The notes under the pieces were generated by a model. That model saw only the letters and a list, made by a program, of their open reading frames with translations, had not been told where the DNA came from and did no database searches. The translations under genes were made by a program, and so were the position numbers. Below, piece after piece: positions 12,114 through 59,480 of a stretch of DNA of 64,000 bases. Within the stretch, counting starts at the first letter, position 1. Every line of letters starts with the position of its first letter. Source of the stretch: a virus. The stretch lies in the IMG/VR virus record IMGVR_UViG_3300032080_000003, positions 1 to 64,000 of that record, one strand, 5' to 3'.

Positions 12114-13224
12114 TAACCTCTATTTGCTCAATATTGTTTTTGACCTCTAACCAGCGATCTTTATTTTCTAAAGTGTTTGAAACAGAATTCCTAGCAACGC
12201 CATACAATGACGCCAAGAATTTCTGTTCTACAAAACCCGAACGCCACAATATTAAAGCTTCGACCACATCTACTAAGGAAAATATAGCCTTACTATTTAA
12301 TTTATGTTTCTTGATTCCTAGGTCTTCTATAGCTTTAGAAATCTTATCTCTGTGAGAATTCCTGTGTAACATCCAGTCTTCAATATATTCTTTTTCAATA
12401 TCGCGAATAGTCTTGCTAAGGTCTTTTTCAAGACTTTGTAAGTATTGATCAGAGTTATTATTTAGAGCTTTGACTAAATAACCAGAACAAAGAGACGGAT
12501 CAAAGCCTTCTTGGAAACGTTCGGACATAGTTCTAAAATAGCTGGCACTAAAATCTCTACCGGAGACCTTATTAACTTTTGTAGAAAAATCCTTCGGACC
12601 CGTCTTTTCTGATCGTTCCCAAAAGTCTTTAAATACATTGAAAGCCAACCAATCTTTCAGCTCACCTTTATGGCGAAAGATTGGTACATGAGAGCCTACG
12701 TTTATTAAAAAGTCTTGATAACAATCTTTTTTATAAATAAACTGTTCCATGTATTTTGTATTATTTTGCTTCCAATTAATAAGCTTCTTCTTTCTTTCAG
12801 TAATTCTTCTGGATGCCTTGATTTGCTCAAGAAGTTCCGGCGGATGGGTTACGCCAAACATCGGATTATTTTCTCCAGAGCATTGGGCACTTACCGCTTG
12901 AGAATACTCTTCTCTGAGTTTAGAATAAACTTTAGAGTTAATACCTACGTGACTATTGCCCGCAATATTATTTACCCATCTTGAACTCATGATATGGGCG
13001 GCGCGCATCAAACTTACATTGTCAGGATTTGCTTTCCACAACAACATGTGTGCTATAAAATGCTCTCTACCTGAAAACAATACAAAATTTTCAGCAGAAT
13101 CTGTTCCGCCAATACATACAGGAATAATATGGTGAGCTTCGGTATAAAAAGGTACTTTAGATTTGTTCAGACCACGAACTTTAGCTTTTTCTACAAGTGC
13201 ATTGTAAATCTTTTCGTAATTCAA
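12049..13224 (-). CDS. HNH homing endonuclease
   Basis: N-terminal motif YTEAHHIIPVCIGGTDSAENFVLFSGREHFIAHMLLW. TTG start with GGAG upstream. Inserted just upstream of the terminase gene. Confidence 0.85.
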   Translation of the reverse strand: MNYEKIYNALVEKAKVRGLNKSKVPFYTEAHHIIPVCIGGTDSAENFVLFSGREHFIAHMLLWKANPDNVSLMRAAHIMSSRWVNNIAGNSHVGINSKVYSKLREEYSQAVSAQCSGENNPMFGVTHPPELLEQIKASRRITERKKKLINWKQNNTKYMEQFIYKKDCYQDFLINVGSHVPIFRHKGELKDWLAFNVFKDFWERSEKTGPKDFSTKVNKVSGRDFSASYFRTMSERFQEGFDPSLCSGYLVKALNNNSDQYLQSLEKDLSKTIRDIEKEYIEDWMLHRNSHRDKISKAIEDLGIKKHKLNSKAIFSLVDVVEALILWRSGFVEQKFLASLYGVARNSVSNTLENKDRWLEVKNNIEQIEVSVLGKCNRTRQSPSGHVFIHP

Positions 13225-13858: not shown

Positions 13859-16093
13859 TTATGCGCCCACTCCTTCAACTCTGACCCTGACTGTTGTGTT
13901 AGGTAGAAGTGTAAGTGTGTTAGCACCAAGACCAATCAGCACCGTTGTCAATACACTATTACCGTAAGTGAGACCTGTTAAGGCTGTACTTGTACTAGTA
14001 TAGGCATTCAAACTAGCTTGCCTAATCCCTGCAACAGTGTTTGCTGTACTTACAGGCTGAACTTGTACATCAAGAATCTCTGTGAAGTCAGTACCTGTTG
14101 TAACTGTCCAGACAGAAGATGTGCTGTCGCTCACCACTGTGTAATATTTAACCTTGACCCGAGCTACCAAACTATTATCAACACGTCTTGTGATAGGAAG
14201 TGTTGCGGATGTAATCTTGGTATCAAGGGTCATCTGAAGGCTTGTAATATCACTAATTACGTGGATATGAGCACTTGGTGTAAAGCTTGTAGGTTTGTTT
14301 GTGAGATCATTCCATGACCCTGAAAACAATACAGGTTTATTCAGAATCTGACTTACACCACTTGTAGCTACCCAATCACTATTAACCTGTGCAGCGGGTA
14401 TAGTTGGCAAACCTGTCAAACTTGAATAGGCACCGCTTGTAGCAACGCTACTCAATCCGCCTACGTCTGCTGCACTAAGAACAATTGCACCAGTTCTACC
14501 CGCAACAGAGGTGACGGGATAGTTAACTGTTGGGATTACTGGCTTATTTGTAAGGTCTGCATAACTACCAGTAGACGCAACAGTTGCATAAATAGGCTTG
14601 TTAATCAAGTCAGCATATGAGCCACTGAACAGTGTTGGCTTACCTGTCAAGTCATTATAAGCACCTGAGAACAGACTAGGCAGTCCAGTAAGACTTGAGT
14701 AAGCAATAGCATCAAGAGAGTTACGCTTGCTGTCAAGAGTTGCTTGAAGATTGGCTATATCGCTGATTGAATGGCTGTGAGATGATGGTGGAAATGTCAG
14801 AGGTTTATTCTGAACATCAGCCCAACTGATATTAACAGACGGAACCTGAGCCAATGTAATGTAAGCCGAATCATTCTCAAACGAACTTACTTTGGTTGGA
14901 AACATGGGTTTATTTGTAAGGTCTGTATATGAGCCACTTACAGCAACAGAAGATAAGCCTGTAACTTGACTTACTGGAACATTAGCTGTGTTTGAAAGCT
15001 TACTATCTAAAGCTGTCTGCAACCCTGTTACATCACTAATTGGATGCTTATGATCTATAGTAATGTAACCACTATTGTTTTCTATCTGATTTGTAGATGT
15101 TGGGATAACAGGTTTATTAATCAGATCAGAATAACTTCCAGTTTTAGCTACAGATGCCAATCCTGAGTTTTCAGATTTAAGATAGTTTATGTCTGTATTT
15201 ACAGAGGATAATTCACCCTGTAAACCTTCTACTTCTGAAATGGTATGCGTATGTGCAGATGGAGCAAACGTTGCTGGAACATCTGTTAAATCTGCATAAC
15301 TACCTGTGAATCCTTCACCAATCTCACTGATTTGTTTTTGAATGTCATCAAGATCATTTTGATCAGCAACGCCAATGAAAACACCCTCTTGAATATAGCC
15401 TGAAAACTTAGGCATTCCGTTTGTGCCAGCAAGAAACATCTGGTCAGCTTGGATATCAAAAACAATGTCTGTACCAGCTTGGAAGATTACGGCTGTATCC
15501 AAGAAGTCCAATACGTTTTCACCAATACCAAAACTTGTCCCGTCCTTACCTGTAGTCCATGAGGATTTGGAGGGAAAGTACTTAACTGCAACACCAGACT
15601 TCTTGTCTGTGATACGCAGCCTTACGTTAGTCATATTCCCAGTTGCAGTAAAAATAAGGGAGTTTGTACGTGCAGTAAACTGGGTGGTGTAATTAAAGGT
15701 GAGGGGGTTTGTCGAGATAGTGATACTACCATTGGCCTGAGCATCAACCCTACGTTCAGCTTCTTTCAAATAGAAATAATAGGGCTTGGAAGCTGGTGCA
15801 TTTCTGGGAGTAGCATAATCCAAAAGCTGATATTTAATATTATCAACCATGTTCTCAAATGCAAGAAAGCCTGCTGATTCAGAGAGTCTAATAACATCTC
15901 CGAAATCAATACTGCCAGACTCTACAGCAAAACCTACTGGAGCGAGAAGGGAACCAGAAGACAGCACCCGCATACCACTGCCTTGAATTGTACCATCAGC
16001 AGCTTTGTAAGGGAGTTGATCGATAGGCCACATTGAAAGGTCATTACCTTCACCTTCAATGATTGTAGTTTTGTTTCTGTTTGGGATAATCAT
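13859..16093 (-). CDS. tail fibre protein
   Basis: 744 aa. About 9 copies of G(S/A)Y(A/S/T)DL(T/I)NKP and 4 copies of HxHx(I)SD(V/I)xxLQ (SAHTHTISEV, DHKHPISDV, SSHSHSISDI, SAHIHVISDI), as in T4-type fibre repeats with His boxes. Confidence 0.85.
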   Translation of the reverse strand: MIIPNRNKTTIIEGEGNDLSMWPIDQLPYKAADGTIQGSGMRVLSSGSLLAPVGFAVESGSIDFGDVIRLSESAGFLAFENMVDNIKYQLLDYATPRNAPASKPYYFYLKEAERRVDAQANGSITISTNPLTFNYTTQFTARTNSLIFTATGNMTNVRLRITDKKSGVAVKYFPSKSSWTTGKDGTSFGIGENVLDFLDTAVIFQAGTDIVFDIQADQMFLAGTNGMPKFSGYIQEGVFIGVADQNDLDDIQKQISEIGEGFTGSYADLTDVPATFAPSAHTHTISEVEGLQGELSSVNTDINYLKSENSGLASVAKTGSYSDLINKPVIPTSTNQIENNSGYITIDHKHPISDVTGLQTALDSKLSNTANVPVSQVTGLSSVAVSGSYTDLTNKPMFPTKVSSFENDSAYITLAQVPSVNISWADVQNKPLTFPPSSHSHSISDIANLQATLDSKRNSLDAIAYSSLTGLPSLFSGAYNDLTGKPTLFSGSYADLINKPIYATVASTGSYADLTNKPVIPTVNYPVTSVAGRTGAIVLSAADVGGLSSVATSGAYSSLTGLPTIPAAQVNSDWVATSGVSQILNKPVLFSGSWNDLTNKPTSFTPSAHIHVISDITSLQMTLDTKITSATLPITRRVDNSLVARVKVKYYTVVSDSTSSVWTVTTGTDFTEILDVQVQPVSTANTVAGIRQASLNAYTSTSTALTGLTYGNSVLTTVLIGLGANTLTLLPNTTVRVRVEGVGA

Positions 16094-16104
16094 GGTCTAT
16101 CTCC

Positions 16105-16392
16105 TTATTCGTAAGTTTCTACGAAGAGACGACCACCAGATGCACCTTTAGCCCATACTCTAGATGATGCTGGGACTTTTTCAATAACAGTCCAATTACC
16201 ATCTAGATTACCTTGCTTCAAAGGCCAACCATCATTGGATGTACCTACTGGCTGACTTGCACGTACCAGGAGAAATACGGTGGCAGCAGATTTATTATTG
16301 ACGATCAGAGATGTTCCCGGAGCAATACCTGTGAGAGTGTATAAATCTACCCAAGTATTGGTCGTAAGGAATACATCATTCAGTGAATCCAT
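16105..16392 (-). CDS. hypothetical protein (fibre-associated by position)
   Basis: 95-aa ORF immediately upstream of the fibre gene on the same strand. Confidence 0.6.
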   Translation of the reverse strand: MDSLNDVFLTTNTWVDLYTLTGIAPGTSLIVNNKSAATVFLLVRASQPVGTSNDGWPLKQGNLDGNWTVIEKVPASSRVWAKGASGGRLFVETYE

Positions 16393-16474
16393 AAAATAAA
16401 CACCTTTATTATTTTTGTATTAGGTGCTTGACAAATTTATAGTGCAGTCAAAGCAAGGACACTTTAGGTAAAAA

Positions 16475-17134
16475 TTACAAGCTCAATGTTTCTAAATTTT
16501 GAGCAGCTTCTAATTTTATCTTTTGAATCCTTGCTTGCAGGGAATTTTCTACCCTTACATCATAGCCTTTTTCTAACTTATATCTTTCAATAGATATTTG
16601 TAAACATTCAATCTTTGCTACTTGCCACGCTTTATGTGCATCTTCTGGTGTAGAGTAGACACCCAAATACTCAAGGATAGATTTACCTTCCTTAAAAATA
16701 TTAACCGTGCTTACGAAAGGTTTTGATTTTTCATTCACCATATTCTTATCAGTTAAATAAGAAACACCCAGAGGATATTTTCCTCTAGCTTTGTCTGCGC
16801 AAATAACTACCTTATTTAGCCACTGTGGGATAAACACACAAGTATCTGGACCATATATCTTGTTGCCCGGTACTAGAATATCTTTATCTAAATCATAACC
16901 TTGCCAATGTTGATTCTCCATCCAAGATTTGAAGTTGCTAGCCCTAAGCCACTCTGGGTGAACTTCTTTATCTGCATAAACTCCCCGATCTTTTTCTTTA
17001 TACGTATCTGAGCATCGAGTTAGCATATGCTTCCATCTAAAATAGAATGGGCAACGTTCTTGTTTTCCATTAATAACGGCTGCAACAGCATAATCTAAAT
17101 CATTAATGCCTAAACCAGAAACTAATCTTGCCAA
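16475..17134 (-). CDS. homing endonuclease-like protein, family 1 (AP2-type DNA-binding region)
   Basis: Paralog of 49077..49817. Shared motifs: GIGINDxDYxV, CPFYxxWKxMxxRC, NFKxWMExQxWQG and LDKDILxPGNKxYGPDTCVF. TTG start. Confidence 0.7.
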   Translation of the reverse strand: MARLVSGLGINDLDYAVAAVINGKQERCPFYFRWKHMLTRCSDTYKEKDRGVYADKEVHPEWLRASNFKSWMENQHWQGYDLDKDILVPGNKIYGPDTCVFIPQWLNKVVICADKARGKYPLGVSYLTDKNMVNEKSKPFVSTVNIFKEGKSILEYLGVYSTPEDAHKAWQVAKIECLQISIERYKLEKGYDVRVENSLQARIQKIKLEAAQNLETLSL

Positions 17135-17140
17135 TTTATC

Positions 17141-17236
17141 AGACCTCTATAGTCAAGCTTCTTAATGTCTGCAACAGGGACATTGTAACAAACCCTTCAT
17201 CAAGGAACTTGCTATAGAGGTCTTACTGTTACAATG
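17141..17236 (-). promoter_or_regulatory. interleaved inverted repeats (pseudoknot-type) sequestering the SD of 16475..17134
   Basis: 12-bp pair agacctctatag (17141-17152) / ctatagaggtct (17212-17223), and 10-bp pair cattgtaaca (17181-17190) / tgttacaatg (17227-17236). In the mRNA the element CUAUAGAGGUCU contains the GAGG located 9 nt before the TTG start. Confidence 0.6.
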
Positions 17237-17272
17237 TTTTAAGCCATTGCAGCGGCCTAATTCTTTCAGATA

Positions 17273-17677
17273 CTACTCTTCATTCTCATCCGGGTCAACA
17301 AAAACCAGACTAAGACGTGGTTTCAATTCAGCTGCAATCTCTTTCGGAGTCTGTTCAGCTTCTTCTTCGTCCCTCTTACCCTTTAGTCGAGCATTAAAAC
17401 TACCGAGCTCTTCTGCCGTGGCATTCTTGATAACACTTACAATAGAGTTGAGTACCCACTTGGCAGAGGCAACGCTGTCAGCATTAACATCGGTGCCCGC
17501 CAGACTTTTATCCACCAGCTGAAGCGCAATATCTTGACGCTCCAGAAGCTTATCAGCAAGTTCTCGGAGCTTGCTCTTCTTGATTCGAGTGGAAGAATTA
17601 CCCTTTTCATTCCTATTGCTTTTCTCTCCATCAAAACGTGTTGCACGTTGCGCTGGGGTATGCGGTTGTTTAGCCAT
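17273..17677 (-). CDS. hypothetical basic/acidic protein (small terminase candidate, weak)
   Basis: 134 aa with a Lys/Arg-rich N-terminus and an acidic C-terminus. First ORF after the long untranslated region. Confidence 0.55.
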   Translation of the reverse strand: MAKQPHTPAQRATRFDGEKSNRNEKGNSSTRIKKSKLRELADKLLERQDIALQLVDKSLAGTDVNADSVASAKWVLNSIVSVIKNATAEELGSFNARLKGKRDEEEAEQTPKEIAAELKPRLSLVFVDPDENEE

Positions 17678-17706
17678 AATATTTATTTCCTGTAGTTTAG
17701 GATTTT

Positions 17707-17892
17707 CTTAAGCAGACTCGCAGGCTATGCCTTGCAGTATTCATTTAGAAGGAGAATGCTTAAGAAAAGACCCTGTTGCAAGCCTATGACAATATAGGAG
17801 AGGATACGTCACAGGCTATCAAGGTCTGAAAGAGATGTCCGGGAGAGGAGACAGACACTCTTTAATGCTGAAGGAGGAGAGAAAACTTCAGC
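17707..17892. other. four consecutive stem-loops with GGA/GGAG-rich loops (CU-rich loops if read on the minus strand)
   Basis: Stems: cttaagca/tgcttaag (17707-17764); agcctatgac/gtcacaggct (17781-17817); aaagag-tgtc/gaca-ctcttt (17829-17863); gctgaag/cttcagc (17867-17892). There are 8 GGA triplets between 17751 and 17899. Confidence 0.55.
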
Positions 17893-17954
17893 AGGTGGAA
17901 ACATAAACTTTATGTAGAATTTGATTCTTTTCGTTTATGTCGGTGAAACCAATC

Positions 17955-18006
17955 TTAGCTCAATCATCACTATTAGCTGTACAGCTAAAATAGACAGACA
18001 AGCTAA
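17955..18006. repeat. symmetric half-site array TTAGCT-12-TTAGCTGTACAGCTAA-12-AGCTAA
   Basis: Perfect 16-bp palindrome at 17973-17988, flanked at equal 12-nt spacing by the same hexamer (17955-17960) and its complement (18001-18006). Confidence 0.6.
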
Positions 18007-18256
18007 TCTAAAATTCGCAGAACTACCACACTTGTACGGCTCTCGTAGTCCGCCCTTTAATGTGGCATTGTGGTTGAACACACTGGTCTGCTGTCAACGT
18101 ACTACGCCGCGTATGAACGTAGTAGCCTATCCCTGTTCCCATCCTACCAACAAACTTATGGAAATTGCTAGAATCGTGCCATATCACCAAGGATTTGTTG
18201 CTCTTTAAAACCCTTCGTATTCTTCATTCATATCTTTTCTCCATCAATATATCTAA

Positions 18257-18284
18257 TTATTACACAGTTAAGGGTTTCTGTCAA
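18257..18284 (-). promoter_or_regulatory. sigma70-type promoter TTGACA-16-TAATAA
   Basis: Minus-strand reading, just downstream of the stop of 18290..18475. It would give a ~560-nt leader before 17677. Confidence 0.45.
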
Positions 18285-18289
18285 GCACT

Positions 18290-18475
18290 TTATTCATATT
18301 TTGGTAAGATAGTTTTGTACATAGTTTCGTCTGGGCAAGTTATACTTTCAAACGCCCATTCATTTCTGAACACTTCCATACTATCTTCCAAATATTCTAC
18401 TTCAATTTCACAGACGCAATATCCGTCAAGCCTGCCGCACTGTGAACAAAAACTTACTTCGCCCATAGTGGACAA
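18290..18475 (-). CDS. small Cys-rich protein
   Basis: 61 aa with CSQCGRLDGYCVC, a zinc-ribbon-like pattern. Co-oriented with its neighbours. Confidence 0.55.
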   Translation of the reverse strand: MSTMGEVSFCSQCGRLDGYCVCEIEVEYLEDSMEVFRNEWAFESITCPDETMYKTILPKYE

Positions 18476-18542
18476 CCTCTTTTGTTTAATTTATGTACTT
18501 AGTTAATCACAGACAATAGTTATTTGTCAAGTGTTAGTGAAA

Positions 18543-18806
18543 TTAATTATCAAACCCCCAGCAACTATCCCAATCATTAGCCTCAAAACAAATATAAAAA
18601 TACTGATCTAAATAGCCAGCATACTTACCTTTGTAGAATAGGACGGGGTCGTACCCAAAAGTTAAACCATCAATTTTTACTTTATTGTAATCCCACCCAG
18701 CGTTTTTACACACCCAATTAACTTCCTTTGTGTATTTCCTGATGTCTGCCCAATCTCTTTCTATAGATTCATACGCAGGTGCTTGTTCATGAAATTTATA
18801 CCTCAT
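18543..18806 (-). CDS. hypothetical protein
   Basis: 87 aa. Its start overlaps the stop of the upstream polymerase-like gene (ATGA). Confidence 0.65.
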   Translation of the reverse strand: MRYKFHEQAPAYESIERDWADIRKYTKEVNWVCKNAGWDYNKVKIDGLTFGYDPVLFYKGKYAGYLDQYFYICFEANDWDSCWGFDN

Positions 18807-20161
18807 TTCTTATCCACCTTGCAGAATGTTGTATCACCCAATACTGTTTTCCAAGCATTGATCATTGCATCATGCAAATCTTTCTCTGCTGACTCTTTCA
18901 CTAACACACTATCATGATAGGCAAGAACAGCGTGACCTTTCTCCCCCATTGCACCAACGATGTTCATCATAATCTTACTGTCAATATTCTGAAGCATAAT
19001 ACCGCCATCATTGAAGAACATGTCTCGAATAAAGTCATTATGGTCCCTGACAGCTTGCAAGACTTTACCGTAGTCGTTTGTTCCAGTCATAGCATAGAAC
19101 GACTGATCTTCTAGCTCTTTCTCACGGTCTAGCTTAACCTTGTTACCAAGTGTCCATGCTGCACTATTCATATCATCAGAATTCATACCAATGAGAATAG
19201 CAAGCTTTGCTAGCTGACGTCTTGGATTATGAGCATTTCCTGTAAATGTCTCCCAAACTGTTTTTAGTTTTTCATCAACTTGAATGAAAGATAGATCAGC
19301 ATCATAGGGAGAGAAATTCTTACCCTTCACATCGTAGATATTAAACCCATCATCATTAAGCATAAGTTGGTAACAAATACTTGGGTGAATTGCACTATAG
19401 TCAAGCTCTACAACACATTCACCATCAATCTTAAGAGAGGACGCTCGGATGTGTTGAGGCAACAACTGAACTCCACCTCCAAGCGTGTACAGACGTCCAC
19501 CTTTATCAAGATCACCAGAGAAGATACGACGATACGCAACATCAGCAATCGGCTTACCATCGAATGTAATCTGTGCACCTTCCAAACTGTTATTCATATT
19601 TCTCACCTCTGTCTTGATATCTTTAAAGCCTTTGTGACCACGTGTAGGCATCAATTCTTTTGTTTCTCTATTTCGGATGATGGCTAAGTCATTCTCTTCT
19701 AGCTCACGCCATAGGTTATAAGAAGTGTTAACGCCTTCCCACATATCTATTGTCCTCTTACGAAAGATAATACATGAGGGGATAACGTAGTCTGGTTTTG
19801 GCTTACCATTAACCATTTTCCAAGACTTAACATAGCCTTTGTAAAGATCAATATAACCCTTCTCTTCTAGAAAATCAACAAGTGATTTTACTTTTCTGTA
19901 TCCAATACCCTGTGATGACTTGGTGTATGTATTCTTATCCAGGCTAAAGATGAAACCACCAGCCTTATGTTTGATAGCACGAGCACTGTTGCTGATCCAC
20001 CATCTAACTGCCTCTTCCCATTTCTCTTCTGTATGAGCAAGCACTTGATCTACGATCTTCTTATAATACTTAGATTCATGGTAATACACGTAACTTCGTA
20101 CACATCTTAGATTGATAGAGTACACCTCTGACTCCTTCATCTTACTTAATTCATAAATCAA
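18803..20161 (-). CDS. minimal family-A polymerase / T7-type single-subunit RNA polymerase-like protein, paralog 1
   Basis: 452 aa. Ordered motifs: DLDKGGRLY (aa 217-225), VVELDYSAIHP (D254), RRQLAKLAILIGMN (K319), AYHDSVLV (D417). TTG start 6 nt after AGGAGG. Paralog of 46698..48071. Confidence 0.6.
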   Translation of the reverse strand: MIYELSKMKESEVYSINLRCVRSYVYYHESKYYKKIVDQVLAHTEEKWEEAVRWWISNSARAIKHKAGGFIFSLDKNTYTKSSQGIGYRKVKSLVDFLEEKGYIDLYKGYVKSWKMVNGKPKPDYVIPSCIIFRKRTIDMWEGVNTSYNLWRELEENDLAIIRNRETKELMPTRGHKGFKDIKTEVRNMNNSLEGAQITFDGKPIADVAYRRIFSGDLDKGGRLYTLGGGVQLLPQHIRASSLKIDGECVVELDYSAIHPSICYQLMLNDDGFNIYDVKGKNFSPYDADLSFIQVDEKLKTVWETFTGNAHNPRRQLAKLAILIGMNSDDMNSAAWTLGNKVKLDREKELEDQSFYAMTGTNDYGKVLQAVRDHNDFIRDMFFNDGGIMLQNIDSKIMMNIVGAMGEKGHAVLAYHDSVLVKESAEKDLHDAMINAWKTVLGDTTFCKVDKK

Positions 20162-20346
20162 TTACTTCCTCCTTCTCTTTCTGTTATCTGTATTGATATT
20201 AGTGGATAGATTGGTGGTGGTAATACGAGATACATGTATTCAAGTACATTTTATACATAAATATGCCCTACAAGCCACAGCCTGTATAGGTTTGTACATT
20301 TTACTACTCGGTACTTTCTACCTTTTTATGCCCCAAATCTCCAACC

Positions 20347-20375
20347 AATCTACACCCTCATTCATCCCCTGTCAA
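20347..20375 (-). promoter_or_regulatory. sigma70-type promoter TTGACA-17-TAGATT (leftward)
   Basis: Minus-strand reading, about 180 nt upstream of the 20161 start. The -10 is followed by GGTTGG. Confidence 0.6.
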
Positions 20376-20421
20376 GCAACACCACCACAAACCTCTCACA
20401 CAAATAAATCCCTTCAACCCC

Positions 20422-20450
20422 TTGCAATGCACAAAATAGCTTGGTATCAT
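20422..20450 (+). promoter_or_regulatory. sigma70-type promoter TTGCAA-17-TATCAT (rightward early)
   Basis: CTTGCAATGCACAAAA is near-identical to CTTGCAATGCATAAAT at 48712. Followed by the inverted repeat cgacaGATtgtcg (20461-20473). Confidence 0.65.
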
Positions 20451-20494
20451 GATTGCACAACGACAGATTGTCGATAATTGAGAGGAGATAAAAG

Positions 20495-20749
20495 ATGATC
20501 ACTAAAGACAGCCCAGAGTATGACGTACACAACACACATTGCTGCTATACACATGGTTGTGCTTATTTGGAGGATGCTGTATGTCCTGTTGTGAATGGTC
20601 TTGGGCAGGGTGTTGTTTGTCAGGATTGTGTTTATGATGATATTGAAATGGAAGCAGCAATTACTCTTTTAATCAGTAGGGGCTTTATTCCTGAAGGGTT
20701 CGATTATAGAACCCACACTCTGAAAAATGTTCCAAAGGAGAAAATTTGA
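20495..20749 (+). CDS. small Cys-rich early protein
   Basis: 84 aa. First gene after the early promoter, with SD GAGGAG upstream. Contains several Cys/His pairs. Confidence 0.7.
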   Translation: MITKDSPEYDVHNTHCCYTHGCAYLEDAVCPVVNGLGQGVVCQDCVYDDIEMEAAITLLISRGFIPEGFDYRTHTLKNVPKEKI

Positions 20750-21114
20750 TGCAAGCAATTACAAAAATAAATGATTGTTACACAGAGGCAATGTTTCATG
20801 CAACAGGTCATGTACACGCTGCACCTGTATGGGAACGCTTCAGTGTACAACGTGTGGTGAGTATGGCAGCCTGTATTGTTGATGGACATTTGATTGTGGG
20901 TAATCGTCACTTCTGCCCAATCATGCGGATGACAATTGAGAATCTTGGTATTGATCCTTTCGACAATCAGCATGATATGGACACTGATCAAGGTTTTGTT
21001 GATCAGTGGGGAGTGTACATGTCACGAGAAGAGGCTTGGGTTGTTGCTAAAGCTGCTGGTCAAATCAAGAAGGTTTATACTAAAGGTATCCTCTACTCCG
21101 AGTGCTACCTGTGA
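20746..21114 (+). CDS. hypothetical protein
   Basis: 122 aa. ATGA overlap with the upstream ORF. Confidence 0.7.
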   Translation: MMQAITKINDCYTEAMFHATGHVHAAPVWERFSVQRVVSMAACIVDGHLIVGNRHFCPIMRMTIENLGIDPFDNQHDMDTDQGFVDQWGVYMSREEAWVVAKAAGQIKKVYTKGILYSECYL

Positions 21115-21192
21115 AATCAACCCAAAACACCACAACATAGTGCAGTTTCCACCCCTTCCAGCAACGTTACATGAAAAGGCTTGTGCTGATGG

Positions 21193-21201
21193 TGCTAGAA
21201 T
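21193..21201 (+). promoter_or_regulatory. extended -10 element TGcTAGAAT
   Basis: Lies in the 130-nt gap before 21245. No good -35 element. Confidence 0.35.
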
Positions 21202-21244
21202 CTGATTTAAGCTAAATTACACATAGATAATTGAGGAGAATAAA

Positions 21245-21622
21245 ATGCTTTTGAAAGAAGGTGATGTAATCGAGATTAAAAATGGTCACACTGTGTACTC
21301 TACCGTGCCTAAACATTTCTTGTTTTCTAACCTAAAGGGTGATTTTAGCTTGGCGAGAGGGGAATGTACTGTGCAAGGAGAGCTGTCTTATCTGTGTGGT
21401 GAATATGTAGTGGATACTGTAAAATTTGAGGGTGGCGGAACGGGACACGGACCACATGATGTGTACCCAAATGGACACCATGTCTTCTGTAAATCTTTGA
21501 CATCTGGGAAAGAGCTTGACTTCTATCAGAGCGGTTGCTTTTCATGTATGATTACAGATATCCAACCTATAGGAAAAGCTGAAAGGTATTGGAAAATTAT
21601 TGATAAGGAAATCAGTAAATGA
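21245..21622 (+). CDS. hypothetical protein
   Basis: 125 aa with SD GAGGAG. Contains GGGTGHGPHDVYPNGHHV. Confidence 0.7.
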   Translation: MLLKEGDVIEIKNGHTVYSTVPKHFLFSNLKGDFSLARGECTVQGELSYLCGEYVVDTVKFEGGGTGHGPHDVYPNGHHVFCKSLTSGKELDFYQSGCFSCMITDIQPIGKAERYWKIIDKEISK

Positions 21623-21649
21623 AAACCCACACTGCTTCTCCATCATCTT

Positions 21650-21670
21650 GGGAATTCGTGTAGAATTCCC
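21650..21670 (+). other. 8-bp hairpin gggaattc-gtgta-gaattccc
   Basis: Intergenic, with no U-run. Possibly a processing or attenuation site. Confidence 0.4.
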
Positions 21671-21782
21671 TAAAACAATCCCTTGGACGAGCCTTGACAC
21701 AGAGAGAATGTTCCAAGTGTATGCAAGCATATATTAATAGTGTACCTTGGCAGGATGTTGCTAAGGAATTGGAGGGGGAAGA

Positions 21783-22022
21783 ATGAGCAGGGAATGGTAT
21801 CTAGATAATAATGGTAATGTTAAAACTTACACACTTATTGAGAAGTTTGATATTTTGTCTAAAGAAACTGGCTTAACAGAAAACCACAAAGATCTGTCTG
21901 ATTGGTTCAAATCAACATTAATGAGTTATGTGTATAGCACAGATAAAAGTATTTCTGACACAGGTTGGGCAGAGTCTGAATGTGCAAGAACTTATGTAGA
22001 TGATAGGTATTCTTGGAAATGA
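21783..22022 (+). CDS. hypothetical protein
   Basis: 79 aa with SD GGAGGGGG. Confidence 0.7.
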   Translation: MSREWYLDNNGNVKTYTLIEKFDILSKETGLTENHKDLSDWFKSTLMSYVYSTDKSISDTGWAESECARTYVDDRYSWK

Positions 22023-22324
22023 CCATCCTCCTAGCTCACATAATCTGTGCAATATGCTCGTTTCTATTGGCAAAATCATGGCTTGAAAACGTTTCTCGGC
22101 CATACGGAGGGATCATTAAGGCTTGGCGTAAGGCACACGAGAATGACCCAGAAACATCCAATGAAGATAGGCGCGACATGAGGAATACACCAGACAATAT
22201 TTTGAATGCAATTGTCTGGACCACTATCCTTGTTGCTAATTTAATTGCATGGCCTCTTGTGTTGTGTATGTTGGTGTGGTACAAAGTGTTTCCAGAGGAT
22301 TTTAGTGATGAGGGTTTGAAGTGA
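22019..22324 (+). CDS. small membrane protein (2 predicted TM helices)
   Basis: Start set to the ATG that overlaps the upstream stop (ATGA). Hydrophobic segments ILLAHIICAICSFLLA and VWTTILVANLIAWPLVLCMLVW. Confidence 0.65.
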   Translation: MTILLAHIICAICSFLLAKSWLENVSRPYGGIIKAWRKAHENDPETSNEDRRDMRNTPDNILNAIVWTTILVANLIAWPLVLCMLVWYKVFPEDFSDEGLK

Positions 22325-22590
22325 AGTATAAATTTGAAGATTATTATGGGAGTGGTAGGTTGGTAGCAGAGGATAAGAGTTTTCATACGATCCCAGAAAG
22401 TGGTGTTGCAGTGAGAGTTGCAGGTATAGACGGGATGTTGTACTCAATTCCAGACTCGTCTTCACACTGTGGTGGTCACGGTATGGGAGGTATGAAATCC
22501 TGTCAAGGTGTAGTAAGTCCAGCAGATATGAGACTTATTGTCATCAAGCACACTTGGGAAGATGTTTTTGATATTGAGGTGATTTTTTGA
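22321..22590 (+). CDS. hypothetical protein
   Basis: 89 aa. GTG start overlaps the upstream stop (GTGA). Confidence 0.6.
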   Translation: MKYKFEDYYGSGRLVAEDKSFHTIPESGVAVRVAGIDGMLYSIPDSSSHCGGHGMGGMKSCQGVVSPADMRLIVIKHTWEDVFDIEVIF

Positions 22591-22955
22591 ACATTTACAT
22601 CGTAACAGGCAGTCGTGGAGAATATGATGAGTATCAAACATTCAATGTCAAAGCTTTCTTTACAGAACAATCCGCACAAGAGTGGATTAACAAACAGCCT
22701 AGTATTAACTATGACGCTTTGAATGAGCTTTCCAGTCTTAAAGATGAGAATTGGGAATCAGCAAATTTACTACATACGCACGGAGAGATGGATAATTGGT
22801 CCGATGCTAAATGGGAGAAATTCTACGAATTTCGAGCTGAGCTAGATAATAAATCTGTTAAAATTATTCAAGAAAAGTATCCTGATGCAGACTTGACAGC
22901 GGATATAGATTTTCATGGATATTCAATTGAATGCATTGAGATGGAAGAAGCCTAA
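22587..22955 (+). CDS. hypothetical protein
   Basis: 122 aa. TTG start overlaps the upstream stop. SD GAGGTG. Confidence 0.65.
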   Translation: MNIYIVTGSRGEYDEYQTFNVKAFFTEQSAQEWINKQPSINYDALNELSSLKDENWESANLLHTHGEMDNWSDAKWEKFYEFRAELDNKSVKIIQEKYPDADLTADIDFHGYSIECIEMEEA

Positions 22956-23104
22956 TGACATTCACACAAGAGCAACGTAAGGCCATCCTTGAGAAATACC
23001 TTGACTACGTCAATGAAGTGAGCGATGATCTTGAGTACAAGAGTTATTTTAGTGCAGAGGAGCTTGTTATGATGGTGTTGGATATTGTTGAGGATCTTGT
23101 TTAA
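22955..23104 (+). CDS. hypothetical small acidic protein
   Basis: 49 aa, below the track cutoff. ATG overlaps the upstream TAA. Confidence 0.5.
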   Translation: MTFTQEQRKAILEKYLDYVNEVSDDLEYKSYFSAEELVMMVLDIVEDLV

Positions 23105-23166
23105 AGATGCACAACGTAAGCTGAGTGAGTTGATGGGTAATTAATTTAACTGAAAAGGAATATGAT

Positions 23167-23946
23167 ATGGGTTCTCGTGAAAAAGCAATTCTGGCTTTGG
23201 TTGACGGCGAAGAGGTTTTTACTACTCGCAAGAAAACCCGTGGCGACAAAAAGCCAACACAATCAAATCGAACAGATGAATGCTACGGGGTCCGGGAGTT
23301 TGTACCCACAATCTGGCAAAAAGAAGCACTGGATATTATTGATGAACATGATATCACCTTTGTGGACTCTGTAGCGGGTACGGGGAAGACTACAATGGCT
23401 CTATATTACGCTTGTAAGGAATATCTTGCAGACGTCAATAAGCAGATTGTATTTGTGCGTACTCCTGCTGAAGTTGGTCCTGATCGTATTGGATTTCTAC
23501 CGGGATCAGCTAAAACAGACTCTGAAAACAAACTTGGTCCACACTTTGAGTCCACGAAGTCTTTGCTTCAGGATTTCATTGGTAAGAATAAGATGGATGC
23601 TGATGAGGGCAAGCGTATTCACTTCTCGATTCCTAACTTTGAGCTAGGAAAGACCCGAGAGAATACTGTCTATATTCTGGACGAATGTCAGCTTCTACAG
23701 CCGCTTATTTTGAAGTTGCTGCTGGAACGTATTGGTCATGGCACTAAAACAATTGTACTCGGTTCTAGTGGTCAGCTTTATACAACTGACCGTGGGCGTA
23801 ACGGCTTGCGGGATGCCTATGCGCGATTCTTCACAGAAAATATGGAGAAAAAGTATGAGCGTATTGGTCACTATAAGTTTCCACTGGATGCGATTCAACG
23901 GGCGGATGTGGTCCGAGATGTTATTGAAGCTTACGAGAATGAATAA
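23167..23946 (+). CDS. phoH: PhoH-like ATPase
   Basis: Walker A VAGTGKTTMALYYA, Walker B-like VYILDECQ, and length and layout typical of phage PhoH. Confidence 0.85.
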   Translation: MGSREKAILALVDGEEVFTTRKKTRGDKKPTQSNRTDECYGVREFVPTIWQKEALDIIDEHDITFVDSVAGTGKTTMALYYACKEYLADVNKQIVFVRTPAEVGPDRIGFLPGSAKTDSENKLGPHFESTKSLLQDFIGKNKMDADEGKRIHFSIPNFELGKTRENTVYILDECQLLQPLILKLLLERIGHGTKTIVLGSSGQLYTTDRGRNGLRDAYARFFTENMEKKYERIGHYKFPLDAIQRADVVRDVIEAYENE

Positions 23947-23955
23947 GGAGGGGAT

Positions 23956-24723
23956 TTGAAAGAAATTAATGGGGTAAAGGTCGCGTCCAACGCTTTAGAT
24001 TGGACGGGTCACGAAGTGGGGAGATTGAAAATTACACATGTCGTTGGTAAGCATCCAACACGGCGTACTCTTTTATGGAATGCCGAATGCAGCTGTGGAA
24101 ATACTTCACAAGTTACCTCTGCTGAACTTTCTGCAAAAGATACTCAGTCATGCGGTTGCTTACACTTAGAAGTAATCGCTGTTACTAATAAAGCGTTTGC
24201 AGAAAAGTACAAAACACACGGGATGGCTGGGACGATTGAACAAAAAGCTTGGAAAAGGATTAAACAAAGATGTCTGAATCCTAATTCAGCCGAATATTAT
24301 ATATACTCTAAGATTGGTATTTCAGAGACTTTTGCTGAAAGTTTTATTAACTTTTATAATGATATCGGGCCTGTTCCAGAAGACCTAAAGGGCAGAATTT
24401 CTGTAGATCGAAAGGAAAACTCTTTAGGTTATGTTGAAGGGAATGTTCGGTGGGCAAACGACGATATGCAGGCCCGAAATAAAGGAATGTACGCCAGTAA
24501 TAAAAGTGGGGTAAATGGTGTTAGACTTCATCAAAATAAAAACGGTTCTATATATTGGTGTGCTACTTGGTATCCAATATCTGGTAAACATAAAAGTAAA
24601 TATTTTTCGATAACTAAATATGGAGACGATTTGGCTTTCTTTGCAGCTTGTGAGTATCGAACTTTGATGATTGATCGTTTAAACTTAGCGGGTGCTGGTT
24701 ATGCCCATGATCATGGTAAATAA
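23956..24723 (+). CDS. homing endonuclease-like protein, family 2 (HNH-like plus AP2-like region)
   Basis: Paralog of 56143..57087 and 62969..63634: CSCGNxxxV..SCGC, THGM, W..IKQRC, VDRKENSLGYVEGNVRWA. The C-terminal GVNGVRLHQNKNGSIYW segment is AP2-like. TTG start. Confidence 0.75.
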   Translation: MKEINGVKVASNALDWTGHEVGRLKITHVVGKHPTRRTLLWNAECSCGNTSQVTSAELSAKDTQSCGCLHLEVIAVTNKAFAEKYKTHGMAGTIEQKAWKRIKQRCLNPNSAEYYIYSKIGISETFAESFINFYNDIGPVPEDLKGRISVDRKENSLGYVEGNVRWANDDMQARNKGMYASNKSGVNGVRLHQNKNGSIYWCATWYPISGKHKSKYFSITKYGDDLAFFAACEYRTLMIDRLNLAGAGYAHDHGK

Positions 24724-24733
24724 GGAGTAACTT

Positions 24734-25540
24734 ATGTCTGAACTAACAATGATTCAACCGGCAAGTCAAGTGATTAGTAAAAGTTTCGTGAGTAACGAAT
24801 ATAACCTCTACCTTCACAATGAAATTTCAAGTGATGGGGATGCTTATCTTGAACACTTTGCTGTCTACCATCAAGCGGGCCCAGATGATCTTATCCGGCT
24901 ATGGATACAAAGTCCGGGTGGGTCTGTTTCGGTGGGTAATCAATACATCCAACATATGAACCGTTGCCCTGCAACTATTATTGCTGTAGTTGGTATGGGT
25001 ACGGCAAGCGAAGGCACAGCTATCTGCTTGGCTGCGGATGACTGGGAAGTGGATGATATGAGCACCTTTTTAGTGCACGGGTTCTCATACGGAGCTTACG
25101 GCCACGAGGCACAAGTTTATAACACCGCAACATTCAACAAGAAATTGAATGAACGATCTCTTCGTAACACTTATTCTGGGTTCTTGACAGAAGATGAAAT
25201 CATGGAAGCGTTGAAAGGGGTTGACTTGTTGTTTGATGGAGAGGAACTTGTGGAGCGGCTTGCTGCATTCAAGCAGTATCGTGCAAATAAACCTTGTCTT
25301 TGTGGGGAAGAAGGCTGCCCACAGAATGCACGTCTTGCACAGGAGGCTGAACAAGAACAATTCGAAGAAACATCCCTTGAAGACATCATTGCCGCAGCCG
25401 TAGAGAAAGGAATTGCAGCTTACGATAAACAACGCTTGCAACGTGAAGCCAAAGCCGCTAAAATGGCTCAACCAAAGCAGCCTTCCAGTCGCACAAAGAA
25501 AGCTTTGGAAGAATCTCAACAAATTATCGAGGGGAATTAA
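24734..25540 (+). CDS. ClpP-like serine protease with coiled-coil C-terminal tail
   Basis: IQSPGGSV, GMGTASEGTAICL (Ser), FLVHGFSYG (His) and GVDLLFDGEEL (Asp) align by eye with the ClpP triad context. The C-terminus is Ala/Gln/Glu/Lys-rich. Confidence 0.7.
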   Translation: MSELTMIQPASQVISKSFVSNEYNLYLHNEISSDGDAYLEHFAVYHQAGPDDLIRLWIQSPGGSVSVGNQYIQHMNRCPATIIAVVGMGTASEGTAICLAADDWEVDDMSTFLVHGFSYGAYGHEAQVYNTATFNKKLNERSLRNTYSGFLTEDEIMEALKGVDLLFDGEELVERLAAFKQYRANKPCLCGEEGCPQNARLAQEAEQEQFEETSLEDIIAAAVEKGIAAYDKQRLQREAKAAKMAQPKQPSSRTKKALEESQQIIEGN

Positions 25541-25542
25541 GA

Positions 25543-25712
25543 TGCAGTGTCTTGTAAAGCATGTCGGTATTGATGATTTTAAATTCAAAAATATAGATAA
25601 AATCACAGTTGAAAATGGCAAAATCAGACTTGAAAGAGAGGGTATTGCTCTAGCCAGCTACTCACTTGACTTCTTCGTCGAAGAAGTCGCAGAAATTATT
25701 ATTGAAAAATAA
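25543..25712 (+). CDS. hypothetical small protein
   Basis: 56 aa. Start set to the ATG after SD GAGGGGA. The longer track ORF 25413..25712 would overlap the ClpP-like gene. Confidence 0.5.
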
Positions 25713-25779
25713 TAATTGACAACACATTGCGTGCTGATTACAATTATGGCACGCATATTATTTAGTAAGGAGAGATTTA

Positions 25780-26024
25780 TGAAGTGGTTTAAAAAGCTGA
25801 TTGATGCCCCGTCTGGAGATAAAGTACAGCTTGAGGGTATCAGAACCTACACAGTCCGTTGGACATCACGTTATGGAGCGTTTAACTCTGAAGTCAAACC
25901 TGAAGTTCAAATGTTTACAAACATCGAGGATGCAGAGCATTTTGCTCAGGCACTTCGGGATGCTTTCAAGCTGATCAGGCACACAGCGGGTAATGTCGTT
26001 AAAGTCGAAAGCCAAGAGCCTTGA
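25780..26024 (+). CDS. hypothetical protein
   Basis: 81 aa from the ATG preceded by TAAGGAGAG. The track start 25716 is a TTG without an SD. Confidence 0.6.
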
Positions 26025-26025
26025 G

Positions 26026-26148
26026 ATGACTTACCCAACAGATGTAGACGACTACGCAGAGGATACACAAGCTATACTTGAGCCATCATTTGATCTTGAC
26101 CCACAAGACTGGCTAGAGTATGATTACACATCGGCTGCAATTGATTAA
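26026..26148 (+). CDS. hyper-acidic micro-protein
   Basis: 40 aa: MTYPTDVDDYAEDTQAILEPSFDLDPQDWLEYDYTSAAID. 12 Asp/Glu and no Lys/Arg. Confidence 0.5.
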   Translation: MTYPTDVDDYAEDTQAILEPSFDLDPQDWLEYDYTSAAID

Positions 26149-32646: not shown

Positions 32647-32657
32647 AGTACTTAATA

Positions 32658-32692
32658 ATAGGGCTTGCTTTCATAGGAGCCCTATTTTATTT
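32658..32692 (+). terminator. rho-independent terminator
   Basis: atagggct-N12-agccctat followed by TTTTATTTG. Confidence 0.75.
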
Positions 32693-33179
32693 GTCTGCAA
32701 GAAAATATCCCAATTCCCCTATAACCCAGATATCGAGTAGTTGCACTTAACGCACCAAGAGGGTGCACAAATATACCCTCCGTTGATTATAAAATATTAG
32801 AAGCTATCTTTCCAATTGATTGTCACTATCAGTTATAGCTTAACGATAGAATTAAATAGATAAGTTAGACAGCCACCTCGGCAAACCCCCTTAGCAAATA
32901 AACTGCTTGACTAATCACACTCACTATGATGAGACATACCTTGCACACTAACGTTACGTCGAACTGATATTATGTTCAAGTAATACTATAACACTTTCTC
33001 TGTTCACTCACAGATAGCACTACTTGTCAACACATTTACTTTACCCACTACCACACTCTACCTCAGTAAGCAACTCTCTTGCACTATCTTAGCTAATACC
33101 TATTGATTAGTACATTGTGATGAGATTATTCTATTATTGCATAATAATTGTTGACTATTATGTGTATGTGTGAGGTGGA

Positions 33180-33290
33180 ATGAAATCGTTACAGGGGATA
33201 ATGTCTGCCGTGCTTAATCGAATGATTAATCTCGGCTATCCTCACAGAGATAAAAAGTACACTGATGAGTGTAAGTTTACAGATGCTTAA
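33180..33290 (+). CDS. possible 36-aa peptide in the otherwise non-coding convergent region
   Basis: ATG lies 4 nt after GAGG. Sequence MKSLQGIMSAVLNRMINLGYPHRDKKYTDECKFTDA. The stop lies in the hairpin taaacct-N10-aggttta. Weak call. Confidence 0.25.
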   Translation: MKSLQGIMSAVLNRMINLGYPHRDKKYTDECKFTDA

Positions 33291-33313
33291 ACCTAGTTGC
33301 TATAAGGTTTAGA

Positions 33314-33372
33314 GGGAGATTTGACAGTAGAGATTTAGAAGGGATTATTGACTAATAGAGGATTACTTAGAA
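33314..33372. repeat. imperfect tandem duplication (27 + 32 nt)
   Basis: gggagatttgacagtagagatttagaa followed by gggattattgactaatagaggattacttagaa. Sub-motifs GGGAxxTTGAC and TAGAGxATTxxTTAGAA each occur twice. Confidence 0.5.
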
Positions 33373-33379
33373 CGAACTA

Positions 33380-33401
33380 AAGGCCACTACATAGTGGCCT
33401 T
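33380..33401. terminator. 9-10 bp GC-containing hairpin aaggccacta/tagtggcctt (candidate bidirectional terminator)
   Basis: Flanked by the direct repeat cttagaac (33366 and 33399). Poor U-runs on both strands. Confidence 0.4.
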
Positions 33402-33479
33402 AGAACATCCTGCTAATTGATTAATCTTCCCAAGAATGAAAACCTACAACACCGCCTGCATCATTGACAATCTTTTGAA

Positions 33480-33749
33480 TTACTTCCTTAGGAACCCAAC
33501 CAAACACAAGTTAGTCTGCACATCTGGACCATTCTTATACTGTTCCAAACTGTCGTAATGTTTACTTGGAAAACCGACTTCAAAAGAATCATAAAAACTG
33601 TAGTCGTCGAAAGTGTTTCTAGGGTTACAGTAGTGGTTTTTAGAAGCTTGAACAGAAAGTGTATTACCATCCGCAAGTTTCAAACTTCTTGTGTTAGGAA
33701 AGAATTGTTTAGTACGACCTTCTTGCATCCAATCGGTAAAAGTTTTCAT
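33480..33749 (-). CDS. hypothetical protein
   Basis: 89 aa, the last gene of the leftward block. SD GGAAGGA. Confidence 0.65.
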   Translation of the reverse strand: MKTFTDWMQEGRTKQFFPNTRSLKLADGNTLSVQASKNHYCNPRNTFDDYSFYDSFEVGFPSKHYDSLEQYKNGPDVQTNLCLVGFLRK

Positions 33750-46696: not shown

Positions 46697-46697
46697 C

Positions 46698-48140: not shown

Positions 48141-48162
48141 GATAGTGAATCAAATTAGGCTG

Positions 48163-48186
48163 CAAGCCCCGCAGTATAAGGGCTTG
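48163..48186 (-). terminator. 7-bp GC hairpin caagccc-N10-gggcttg (attenuator/terminator candidate)
   Basis: Lies between 48196..48390 and the polymerase-like gene. No clear U-run. Confidence 0.4.
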
Positions 48187-48195
48187 AGCTGGTTA

Positions 48196-48390
48196 CTACC
48201 CCTTCCACACCACATCATACTTAGGACACACATCAGATAGCTTCTGCATGCCCATGTAGTAGTCATTCAGCCCACCAACCAAGAAAAACATTCCCTGATT
48301 ACTCATGACAACCATCTGTCCTTCAGAAAGTTGTAGCTTCTCACCAGTGGATGCGTCAATGATTTTGAATTCCTTTTTCATTACATCCAA
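48196..48390 (-). CDS. hypothetical protein
   Basis: 64 aa. Confidence 0.65.
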   Translation of the reverse strand: MDVMKKEFKIIDASTGEKLQLSEGQMVVMSNQGMFFLVGGLNDYYMGMQKLSDVCPKYDVVWKG

Positions 48391-59179: not shown

Positions 59180-59197
59180 ATTATTAGGAGAAACAAA

Positions 59198-59473: not shown

Positions 59474-59480
59474 ACAATAT

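Follow-up and report, generated by a model that had tools for sequence, protein, structure and literature searches.

Two minimal family-A polymerases of the divPolA2 family in a phage genome and their possible role in site-targeted initiation

Results

Two paralogous polymerase genes in a 64-kb viral sequence

The first 64,000 nucleotides of the IMG/VR virus record IMGVR_UViG_3300032080_000003 (hereafter the window, meaning this whole stretch of DNA) contain two leftward genes encoding proteins of 452 and 457 amino acids (aa). An original prediction, made from the sequence alone, had described them as a pair of half-size family-A polymerases leaning towards T7-type RNA polymerases (RNAPs). We find that both are members of divPolA2, a family of minimal family-A (Pol I-like) polymerases. 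The two genes, and the domains of the protein that we call paralog 1, are laid out as follows.

18803..20161, minus strand: divPolA2 paralog 1, 452 aa, TTG start (open reading frame (ORF) call, PHROG 4756, AlphaFold2 (AF2) model, Foldseek, and residue conservation)
19517..20161, minus strand: N-terminal globular domain of paralog 1, residues 1-215 (AF2 model)
18806..19516, minus strand: palm and fingers of paralog 1, residues 216-452, with R223, D254, R315/K319, and H416-D417-S418
46698..48071, minus strand: divPolA2 paralog 2, 457 aa, TTG start, catalytic D242 and D422 (ORF call, BLASTP, and PHROG)

ORF calling and BLASTP confirmed that these are paralogous ORFs with TTG starts, each preceded by an AGGAGG that lies 6 nucleotides (nt) upstream of the TTG in paralog 1 and 9 nt upstream in paralog 2. 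The two proteins align over their full length with 30% identity (BLASTP E 9e-66), and both match phrog_4756, a family of "unknown function," from end to end (E 1.7e-81 for paralog 1 and 5e-71 for paralog 2). There is no third copy in the window, as judged by a search with the family hidden Markov model. Pseudomonas phage vB_PsaM_M1 has a single copy, annotated as "DNA polymerase," with which paralog 2 shares 51% identity. With that exception, the identity of the window proteins to isolate-phage proteins does not exceed ~30%, and no near-identical DNA was found in isolate phages. An 89.4-kb relative carries both paralogs at comparable spacing, with ~88% identity.

Two features of the original description hold in part. 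That each gene heads a leftward block is true of paralog 1, the first gene after its promoter, but not of paralog 2, which is the third gene of its block, after small ORFs at 48381..48626 and 48196..48390. Similarly, the proteins are "half-size" relative to T7 RNAP only, since the polymerase domain of Pol I alone has ~400 aa and is thus similar in size. The accompanying statement that no characterised single-subunit RNAP is this small overlooked N4 RNAPII, in which two small subunits form a heterodimer.

Both proteins have a family-A polymerase fold

The AF2 model of paralog 1, computed from a 44-sequence alignment, has a predicted local distance difference test score (pLDDT) of 91.8 and a predicted template modeling score of 0.85. 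When this model was compared to the PDB using Foldseek, the best 50 matches were all family-A DNA polymerases (probability 0.99-1.00, E 2e-6 to 8e-5), including Aquifex and Taq Pol I, Bst, T7 DNA polymerase, and the apicoplast polymerase, with a global template modeling score of only ~0.3 since the N-terminal half differs. In the BFVD viral structure library, family members rank first and are followed by phage PolAs. There is no single-subunit RNAP among the best 50 matches in the PDB or among the best 50 in BFVD.

Sequence profiles point in the same direction. The 44-sequence family profile, searched against all PDB sequences, matched only Taq and other Pol I enzymes, weakly (E 0.07-1) but with a specific alignment, which for Taq (E ~0.07-0.1) starts at the TGR hairpin and spans TGR..QNIP..R..LDYSQIE. 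No RNAP was matched by family profiles in the PDB at E<=10. With a broader 110-sequence profile, the weak Pol I matches were lost and only sub-threshold PadR winged-helix matches were seen. While phmmer with each paralog yielded no match in the PDB, Pfam and NCBIfam yielded none either for the two paralogs or for 10 remote members, because the family is too divergent for these models; PADLOC likewise returned nothing useful. An hhalign comparison of the family profile with single T7 RNAP and T7 DNA polymerase sequences was uninformative (probabilities 0.3-0.4%).

The palm and fingers similarity to family-A polymerases that the original prediction expected from structure searches is therefore found, and its reading of a family-A polymerase fold with an intact active site is borne out by both the PDB profile matches and Foldseek. 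The AF2 model contains neither an exonuclease domain nor a canonical thumb, and in its secondary structure there is no beta-hairpin at the place of the T7 RNAP specificity loop, between motifs B and C. The GR motif and motif A are separated by 31 residues, compared to ~37 in Taq and >110 in T7 RNAP.

The active site is intact, and its nucleotide pocket is family-specific

We quantified residue conservation in 303 family members aligned to the family profile. The four family-A motifs are present where they had been predicted, with a conservation far above chance: the GR motif (GGRLY in paralog 1 and GGRMY in paralog 2), motif A (ELD254Y and ELD242F), motif B (R315xxxK319 and RNLQK), and motif C (H416-D417-S and H421-D422-S). 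R223, R239, and D254 are invariant (303/303), K319, H416, and D417 are conserved in >99% of the members, and the R315/K319 and H416/D417 pairs are invariant or >98% conserved. As judged from this conservation, both proteins have an intact family-A catalytic core that is under strong purifying selection.

The nucleotide pocket is a different matter from that of Pol I. The position equivalent to the steric-gate residue E710 of Pol I is occupied by His in 95% of the members, while the Y766 position has Asn in 282 of them (93%) and Tyr in 4. These two substitutions had been noted in the window pair and turn out to be family-wide. In addition, Leu/Met is found at the F762 position in 86% of the members (Met in paralog 2, which reads KRTVM), and the motif C Asp is followed by Ser in 93%. 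In 289 members (95%), a Glu lies two positions ahead of the motif A Asp (VELDY; E252 in paralog 1 and E240 in paralog 2), and may provide the third carboxylate that in Pol I is given by the Glu of HDE, here Ser. By its residues, this pocket—His gate, Asn in the O helix, and ExD plus HDS—is family-specific, unlike those of both Pol I and T7 RNAP.

The two proteins are divergent members of divPolA2

The divPolA2 family was described computationally by Yutin, Tolstoy, Mutz, Wolf, Krupovic, and Koonin (2024, Virol J 21:200; PMC11348598), in a survey that covered Caudoviricetes only. These authors reported an active palm, no exonuclease, no homologous thumb, and a novel N-terminal globular domain, together with co-occurrence with a regular PolB, two to three paralogs in genomes, a variable neighborhood, and the presence of a copy in 110/110 barbaviruses (PMC11348598). 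The type member, Barba18A gp034, matches our window-based profile over its full length (positions 37-454, 146 bits, E 4e-45), and a Barba31A protein is a Foldseek match to the paralog 1 model (E 1.6e-23). With this homology to the type protein, a PolB in the same genome, two paralogs, and the same domain layout, both genes are divPolA2 members. The window proteins are divergent additions to a family already published in 2024, for which Yutin et al. proposed either a repair DNA polymerase or an RNA polymerase (PMC11348598); the original prediction is an independent rediscovery of divPolA2 with the same two hypotheses. Among the papers searched, we found no later mention of divPolA2, and no report of an activity test for this branch.

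We wondered how widespread the family might be. By tblastn, homologs were found in 238 isolate phage genomes, many with two or three copies, including 115 Rheinheimera "Barba" records and phages of Vibrio (among which ICP1), Aeromonas, Pseudoalteromonas, and Shewanella. A profile search of 1.84 billion cluster representatives yielded 10,847 clusters (50% identity) at E<=1e-3 and 4,793 at E<=1e-30, which we take as a lower bound for the size of the family. Relatives have lengths of ~400 to 650 aa. The ICP1 homolog, gp102/ORF100 (58951..60618 in ICP1_2006_E), is a 555-aa protein annotated as hypothetical that scores 200 bits against the profile. No mention of gp102 was found in the ICP1 papers searched, the transcriptome papers on this phage do not address it, and a 2026 ICP1 paper says that the phage encodes no RNA polymerase. 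In Barba18A (15463..26086), the divPolA2 gene is second in its block and is followed in the same direction by a macro-domain gene and then, ~3-5 kb downstream, by primase and PolB.

Bacterial relatives lie beside recombinases and resemble TV-Pol

Bacterial members align to the family over nearly their full length, including most of the N-terminal domain (160-330 bits). Individual members overlap or follow a tyrosine integrase, lie near a resolvase, or are found in an island with integrases and conflict-system genes. Of the Pfam families represented among 130 nearest-neighbor ORFs at 47 genome loci, Resolvase (10) and Phage_integrase (8) are the most frequent.

The same context was described by Iyer, Abhiman, and Aravind (2008, Biol Direct 3:39) for TV-Pol, a family of minimal superfamily-A polymerases carried by viruses and transposons, for which they predicted a primase-polymerase function from the mobile-element setting (PMC2579912). 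The TV-Pol core measures 400-600 aa; its hairpin Arg is invariant, it has RxxxK and two catalytic Asp, and nucleases are never associated with it. In one subset, the protein carries an additional N-terminal domain, and its gene has a lambda-type integrase, a gamma-delta resolvase, or a transposase beside it. TV-Pols are also found in phage genomes that keep a normal replicase, and one such element is inserted in phage Ma-LMM01 (PMC2579912). The window proteins have the size of TV-Pols and no exonuclease, whereas recombinase neighbors are a feature of the bacterial relatives and not of the window genes themselves. The genomes that we matched include Reinekea blandensis MED297, alpha proteobacterium HTCC2255, and Alteromonas, and the matched names also stand in the species list of the alignment legend of Iyer et al. 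(PMC2579912). In the first 50 kb of Ma-LMM01, MAP_030 is the only ORF matched. This ORF adjoins transposases and scores weakly (15.6 bits; for a database of 1e6 sequences, E would be 0.35); in common with the family it has GRxY..GGGxQ, a His at the fifth residue past the motif A Asp, KxxxLxxxN, and HDG, and it is a candidate for the TV-Pol of Ma-LMM01. divPolA2 would appear to be the phage branch of a very large TV-Pol family whose bacterial members are mobile-element cargo. The text of PMC11348598 makes no link between divPolA2 and either bacterial integrase/resolvase elements or TV-Pol.

The only TV-Pol tested biochemically is CcPol of SCCmec, a DNA polymerase that primes DNA synthesis de novo together with its OB-fold partner MP, with priming near its own operon (Bebel et al. 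2020 eLife; Rice 2023; PMC7581432, PMC10061031). By itself, CcPol performs primer extension only (PMC7581432).

The N-terminal domain is possibly winged-helix-like

Modeled alone, the N-terminal 215 residues form a mixed alpha/beta domain (pLDDT 91.0), for which Foldseek found no match in the PDB at E<=0.001. The weak best matches (best E 0.03) are almost all winged-helix proteins, namely MarR, Fur, eS10, and a relaxosome oriT-binding protein. The PadR match of the 110-sequence profile, which covers LE..GYI and the wing, is sub-threshold as well (E 0.095). The domain being winged-helix-like is therefore suggestive, not established. A nucleic-acid-binding role for this part of the protein, for which DNA binding had been suggested earlier, is made plausible by these matches, with the proviso that they fall below significance.

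A conserved leader element precedes each polymerase gene

Each gene lies near a divergent junction, around which the following elements were found.

20347..20375, minus strand: sigma-70-like promoter TTGACA-N17-TAGATT before paralog 1 (scan; a consensus match, of putative function)
20264..20309, minus strand: leader element of paralog 1, GAGTAG.AA...CAAACC.TATA..C.GTGGC.TGTAG, between the promoter and the ribosome-binding site (alignment of 7 related contigs, nhmmer)
20422..20450, plus strand: divergent promoter-like site TTGCAA-N17-TATCAT (repeat family D5, scan)
48638..48665, minus strand: candidate promoter TTGACA-N16-TAAGCT, with a weak -10, for the block of two small ORFs and then paralog 2 (read from the sequence; absent from the scan list)
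48156..48201, minus strand: homologous leader element of paralog 2, GGGTAGTAA...CAAGCCCTTATACTGCGGGGCTTGCAG, overlapping the stop codon of the upstream small ORF (joint alignment, nhmmer)
48713..48741, plus strand: counterpart divergent site TTGCAA-N17-TAGATT

In an alignment of related phage contigs, the GGTTGAC -35 region of the paralog 1 promoter is kept. In two relatives, L074 and L075, the counterpart of the paralog 2 promoter reads GGGGTTGACA-N17-TAGTCT. Sigma-70-like sites are not more frequent in the window than in shuffled controls, and its intergenic regions contain no recurrent phage-specific promoter motif (no repeat >=16 nt and no enriched 10-mer). A phage with few specific promoters would escape a motif search, and the promoter evidence is weak either way.

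The ~45-nt leader element is the best-conserved intergenic stretch in related 84-92-kb phage contigs, and its conservation exceeds that of the promoters. There are exactly two copies in the window, one before each paralog, as located by nhmmer; regex patterns missed copies owing to indels. An RNA hairpin was considered and rejected, with RNAalifold giving -0.5 kcal/mol and a hairpin seen by eye in the paralog 2 relatives not being kept in the paralog 1 relatives. We consider the element a candidate recognition site of the polymerases, either an autoregulatory operator or a priming/origin site.

The position of the genes recurs. At five loci (both window copies, vB_PsaM_M1, Barba18A, and ICP1), the divPolA2 gene is one of the first few to follow a divergent junction. 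The cumulative GC skew of the window has two V-shaped minima, at ~20000 and ~48000, at the divergent junctions beside the paralogs. These minima could reflect the switch in gene orientation alone, and may also be a classical signature of replication origins.

The genes immediately downstream vary. An 87-aa ORF downstream of paralog 1 is kept in one of its 7 relatives, and the gene that follows paralog 2 is found at that position in 0/7 of its relatives:

46121..46714, minus strand: nucleotidyltransferase, 197 aa, phrog_10174, GGAPRDW...DLDF, reminiscent of the head of CCA-adding enzymes, overlapping the end of paralog 2 by 17 nt

A partner/helicase operon like that of CcPol-MP was rejected for these two genes, since neither is conserved in the relatives. 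No helicase gene is adjacent to either paralog in the window, and no recombinase or transposase was found beside either copy among the neighbors scanned. An HNH endonuclease (16475..17134, minus strand) and an AP2-domain protein (49065..49817, plus strand) match the same ORF in vB_PsaM_M1 and in L074, and are probably homing endonucleases, one near each paralog block.

The phage has a regular replisome

The window encodes replication enzymes of its own.

52083..53942, plus strand: gp4-like primase-helicase, preceding the replicase (PHROG; PHROG 1252 and PHROG 239 cover the replicase/primase-helicase pair)
53954..56143, plus strand: family-B replicase, 729 aa (PHROG, PDB family-B matches, and motifs DxxSMYPS, KxxxNSxYG, and NTDG)

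Since the phage has its own PolB and primase-helicase, the divPolA2 pair is accessory, and the earlier view that these proteins are unlikely to be the replicative polymerase is upheld. The replicase itself is so divergent that it is matched by no Pfam model; where DTDS is usual, its motif C has CNTDG, and its best PDB match has an E of 1e-5.

Discussion

Site-targeted initiation and its competitors

Our favored reading, to which we would give a probability of roughly 0.4, is that the divPolA2 pair are site-targeted primase-polymerases or initiators. In this scenario, host RNA polymerase would express each gene early, from the sigma-70-like promoter at its divergent junction. The N-terminal domain, possibly winged-helix-like, would bring the catalytic core to a specific nucleic-acid site, for which the leader element is a candidate, be it for autoregulation or for priming. 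There, the enzyme would start or extend a short strand, from deoxynucleoside triphosphates (dNTPs) or ribonucleoside triphosphates, and would then hand over to the PolB/primase-helicase replisome, acting neither as a bulk replicase nor as a T7-type transcriptase. Because the bacterial relatives are found beside integrases and resolvases in small elements, initiation of DNA synthesis is favored over T7-style transcription.

Several points weigh against this reading. The link to TV-Pol rests on genomic context, matching genome names, and a weak match in Ma-LMM01, while the winged-helix likeness of the N-terminal domain is below significance (E 0.03 and 0.095). Furthermore, CcPol retains the Glu and Phe by which Pol I selects dNTPs, whereas in the divPolA2 family these are His and Leu/Met, Tyr is Asn, and HDE is HDS; because of these differing pocket residues, what CcPol implies about the substrate is weak. 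No partner gene is conserved beside the polymerase genes among the 7 + 7 relatives compared, and the phage already encodes a gp4-like primase-helicase.

A second explanation, which we consider unlikely, is that the two proteins are miniature DNA-dependent RNA polymerases, made early by the host and transcribing middle or late genes, with the paralogs serving different gene classes and the N-terminal domain replacing the promoter-binding elements of T7 RNAP. The early gene positions would suit such a role, as would the HDS of motif C (as in T7 RNAP), the loss of the steric-gate Glu, and Leu/Met at the F762 position (M635 in T7 RNAP), with KRTVM in paralog 2; moreover, the coding strand ahead of the structural block (12114..12473) yielded no sigma-70-type promoter. 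The pocket nevertheless speaks against it at the motif-B Tyr position, which is Asn in 93% of the members. To our knowledge, this Tyr is universal in characterised single-subunit RNAPs, and in T7 RNAP it is the residue, Y639, that selects ribonucleotides. The fold is also at odds with an RNAP, with the best 50 PDB fold matches all being DNA polymerases, no RNAP in the PDB profile search at E<=10, a GR-to-motif-A spacing that is Pol I-like, and no specificity-loop hairpin. Finally, no recurrent phage-specific promoter-like motif was found, the sole conserved element being confined to the leaders of the two genes themselves, and the full-length bacterial homologs lie beside integrases and resolvases, where a replication enzyme fits better. 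The T7-type leaning of the original prediction is therefore disfavored, the nearest relatives in both sequence and structure being Pol I-type DNA polymerases.

Somewhat less probable again are primer-dependent accessory DNA polymerases without proofreading, which would take no part in initiation and would instead be used for repair, gap filling, lesion bypass, or recombination-dependent synthesis. This option, listed by Yutin et al. (PMC11348598), agrees with the Pol I-type folds being closest, with the lack of an exonuclease and, by published comparison, of a homologous thumb, which suggests low processivity, and with the finding that CcPol alone merely extends primers (PMC7581432). It leaves unexplained, however, the conserved family-specific N-terminal domain and the gene-specific leader element, the retention of two or three divergent paralogs, and the close linkage to recombinases in small mobile elements, a setting in which one would expect a replication function specific to the element.

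That the genes are remnants or passengers of self-spreading TV-Pol mobile elements inserted in the phage genome, of little use to the phage, is improbable: it would fit the TV-Pol element of Ma-LMM01 (PMC2579912) with its candidate gene beside transposases, the variable neighborhoods of the phage copies, and the homing-endonuclease-like genes nearby, but the window copies have no recombinase or transposase beside them among the neighbors scanned, both paralogs are retained at comparable spacing in the 89.4-kb relative with ~88% identity, all 110 barbaviruses have a copy (PMC11348598), and the active sites are under strong purifying selection.

Going beyond site-targeted priming by the window pair, divPolA2/TV-Pol could as a whole constitute a distinct functional class of site-specific enzymes that initiate de novo, whether winged-helix-guided primase-polymerases or miniature RNAPs. 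Each paralog would then have the cognate element next to its own gene as its site of action, at the divergent junctions and GC-skew minima, and the window would hold two initiator-plus-site pairs. We regard this wider proposal as doubtful.

Comparison with known systems

The window proteins share with TV-Pol the minimal 400-600-aa core, the motif set, the lack of a nuclease, and their presence alongside a phage replicase. They differ in the N-terminal domain, predicted to be all-helical by Iyer et al. (PMC2579912) but mixed alpha/beta in our AF2 model, and the window has no D5-like helicase fused to them or flanking their genes. CcPol-MP is similar in that it involves a truncated A-family polymerase of a mobile element, the thumb of CcPol being shortened. 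CcPol is, however, without the N-terminal domain of TV-Pol and needs the neighboring MP and the helicase Cch2, whereas the window genes have no conserved partner or helicase.

The T7-type RNAPs (T7, N4 RNAPII and vRNAP, and mitochondrial) share a right-hand palm and fingers, the T/DxxGR-A-B-C order, the HDS of motif C, a predicted early expression, and Met at the F762 equivalent in paralog 2. Unlike them, the window proteins have no motif-B Tyr, long GR-to-A insertion, specificity loop, or homologous N-terminal domain. Pol I/Klenow gives the best sequence and structure matches, with an alignment covering TGR..Q..P..R..(V/L)xLDYSxI, but the window proteins are without its 5'-3' and 3'-5' exonuclease domains and canonical thumb. 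The Glu, Phe/Tyr, Tyr, and motif C Glu of Pol I are replaced by His, Leu/Met, Asn, and Ser, and there is the extra Glu before the motif A Asp.

To the published description of divPolA2, the present analysis adds the size of the family, the bacterial recombinase context, the family-specific pocket, the weak winged-helix likeness, and the leader element shared by the two genes. The family is huge, with members in bacterial integrative elements as well as in phages, among them the cholera phage ICP1, and has no Pfam, NCBIfam, or PADLOC model. Since the residues that read the sugar are conserved, yet unlike those of Pol I and T7 RNAP, the nature of the product (DNA, RNA, or mixed primers) is directly testable. 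De novo initiation, if true, would widen a third kind of primase that has so far been shown only for CcPol-MP. If the proteins were instead RNA polymerases, many phages thought to depend wholly on host RNAP would need re-examination. If the distinct initiating class existed, phages said to have no RNAP, such as ICP1 with gp102, would carry an unrecognised initiating polymerase.

Other features of the window

Scans of the window for tRNAs and Rfam families were both empty. Two gaps of ~0.9 kb each, at 17678..18542 and 32647..33557, contain no convincing ORF, tRNA, or Rfam match. The first of them holds a strong sigma-70-like site (18284..18256, minus strand), with 11/12 consensus matches and an extended TG. 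Within a 744-aa tail-fiber gene, at 14529..15318, there are four copies of a degenerate ~55-nt direct repeat (60-73% identity), which probably encode repeated structural units.

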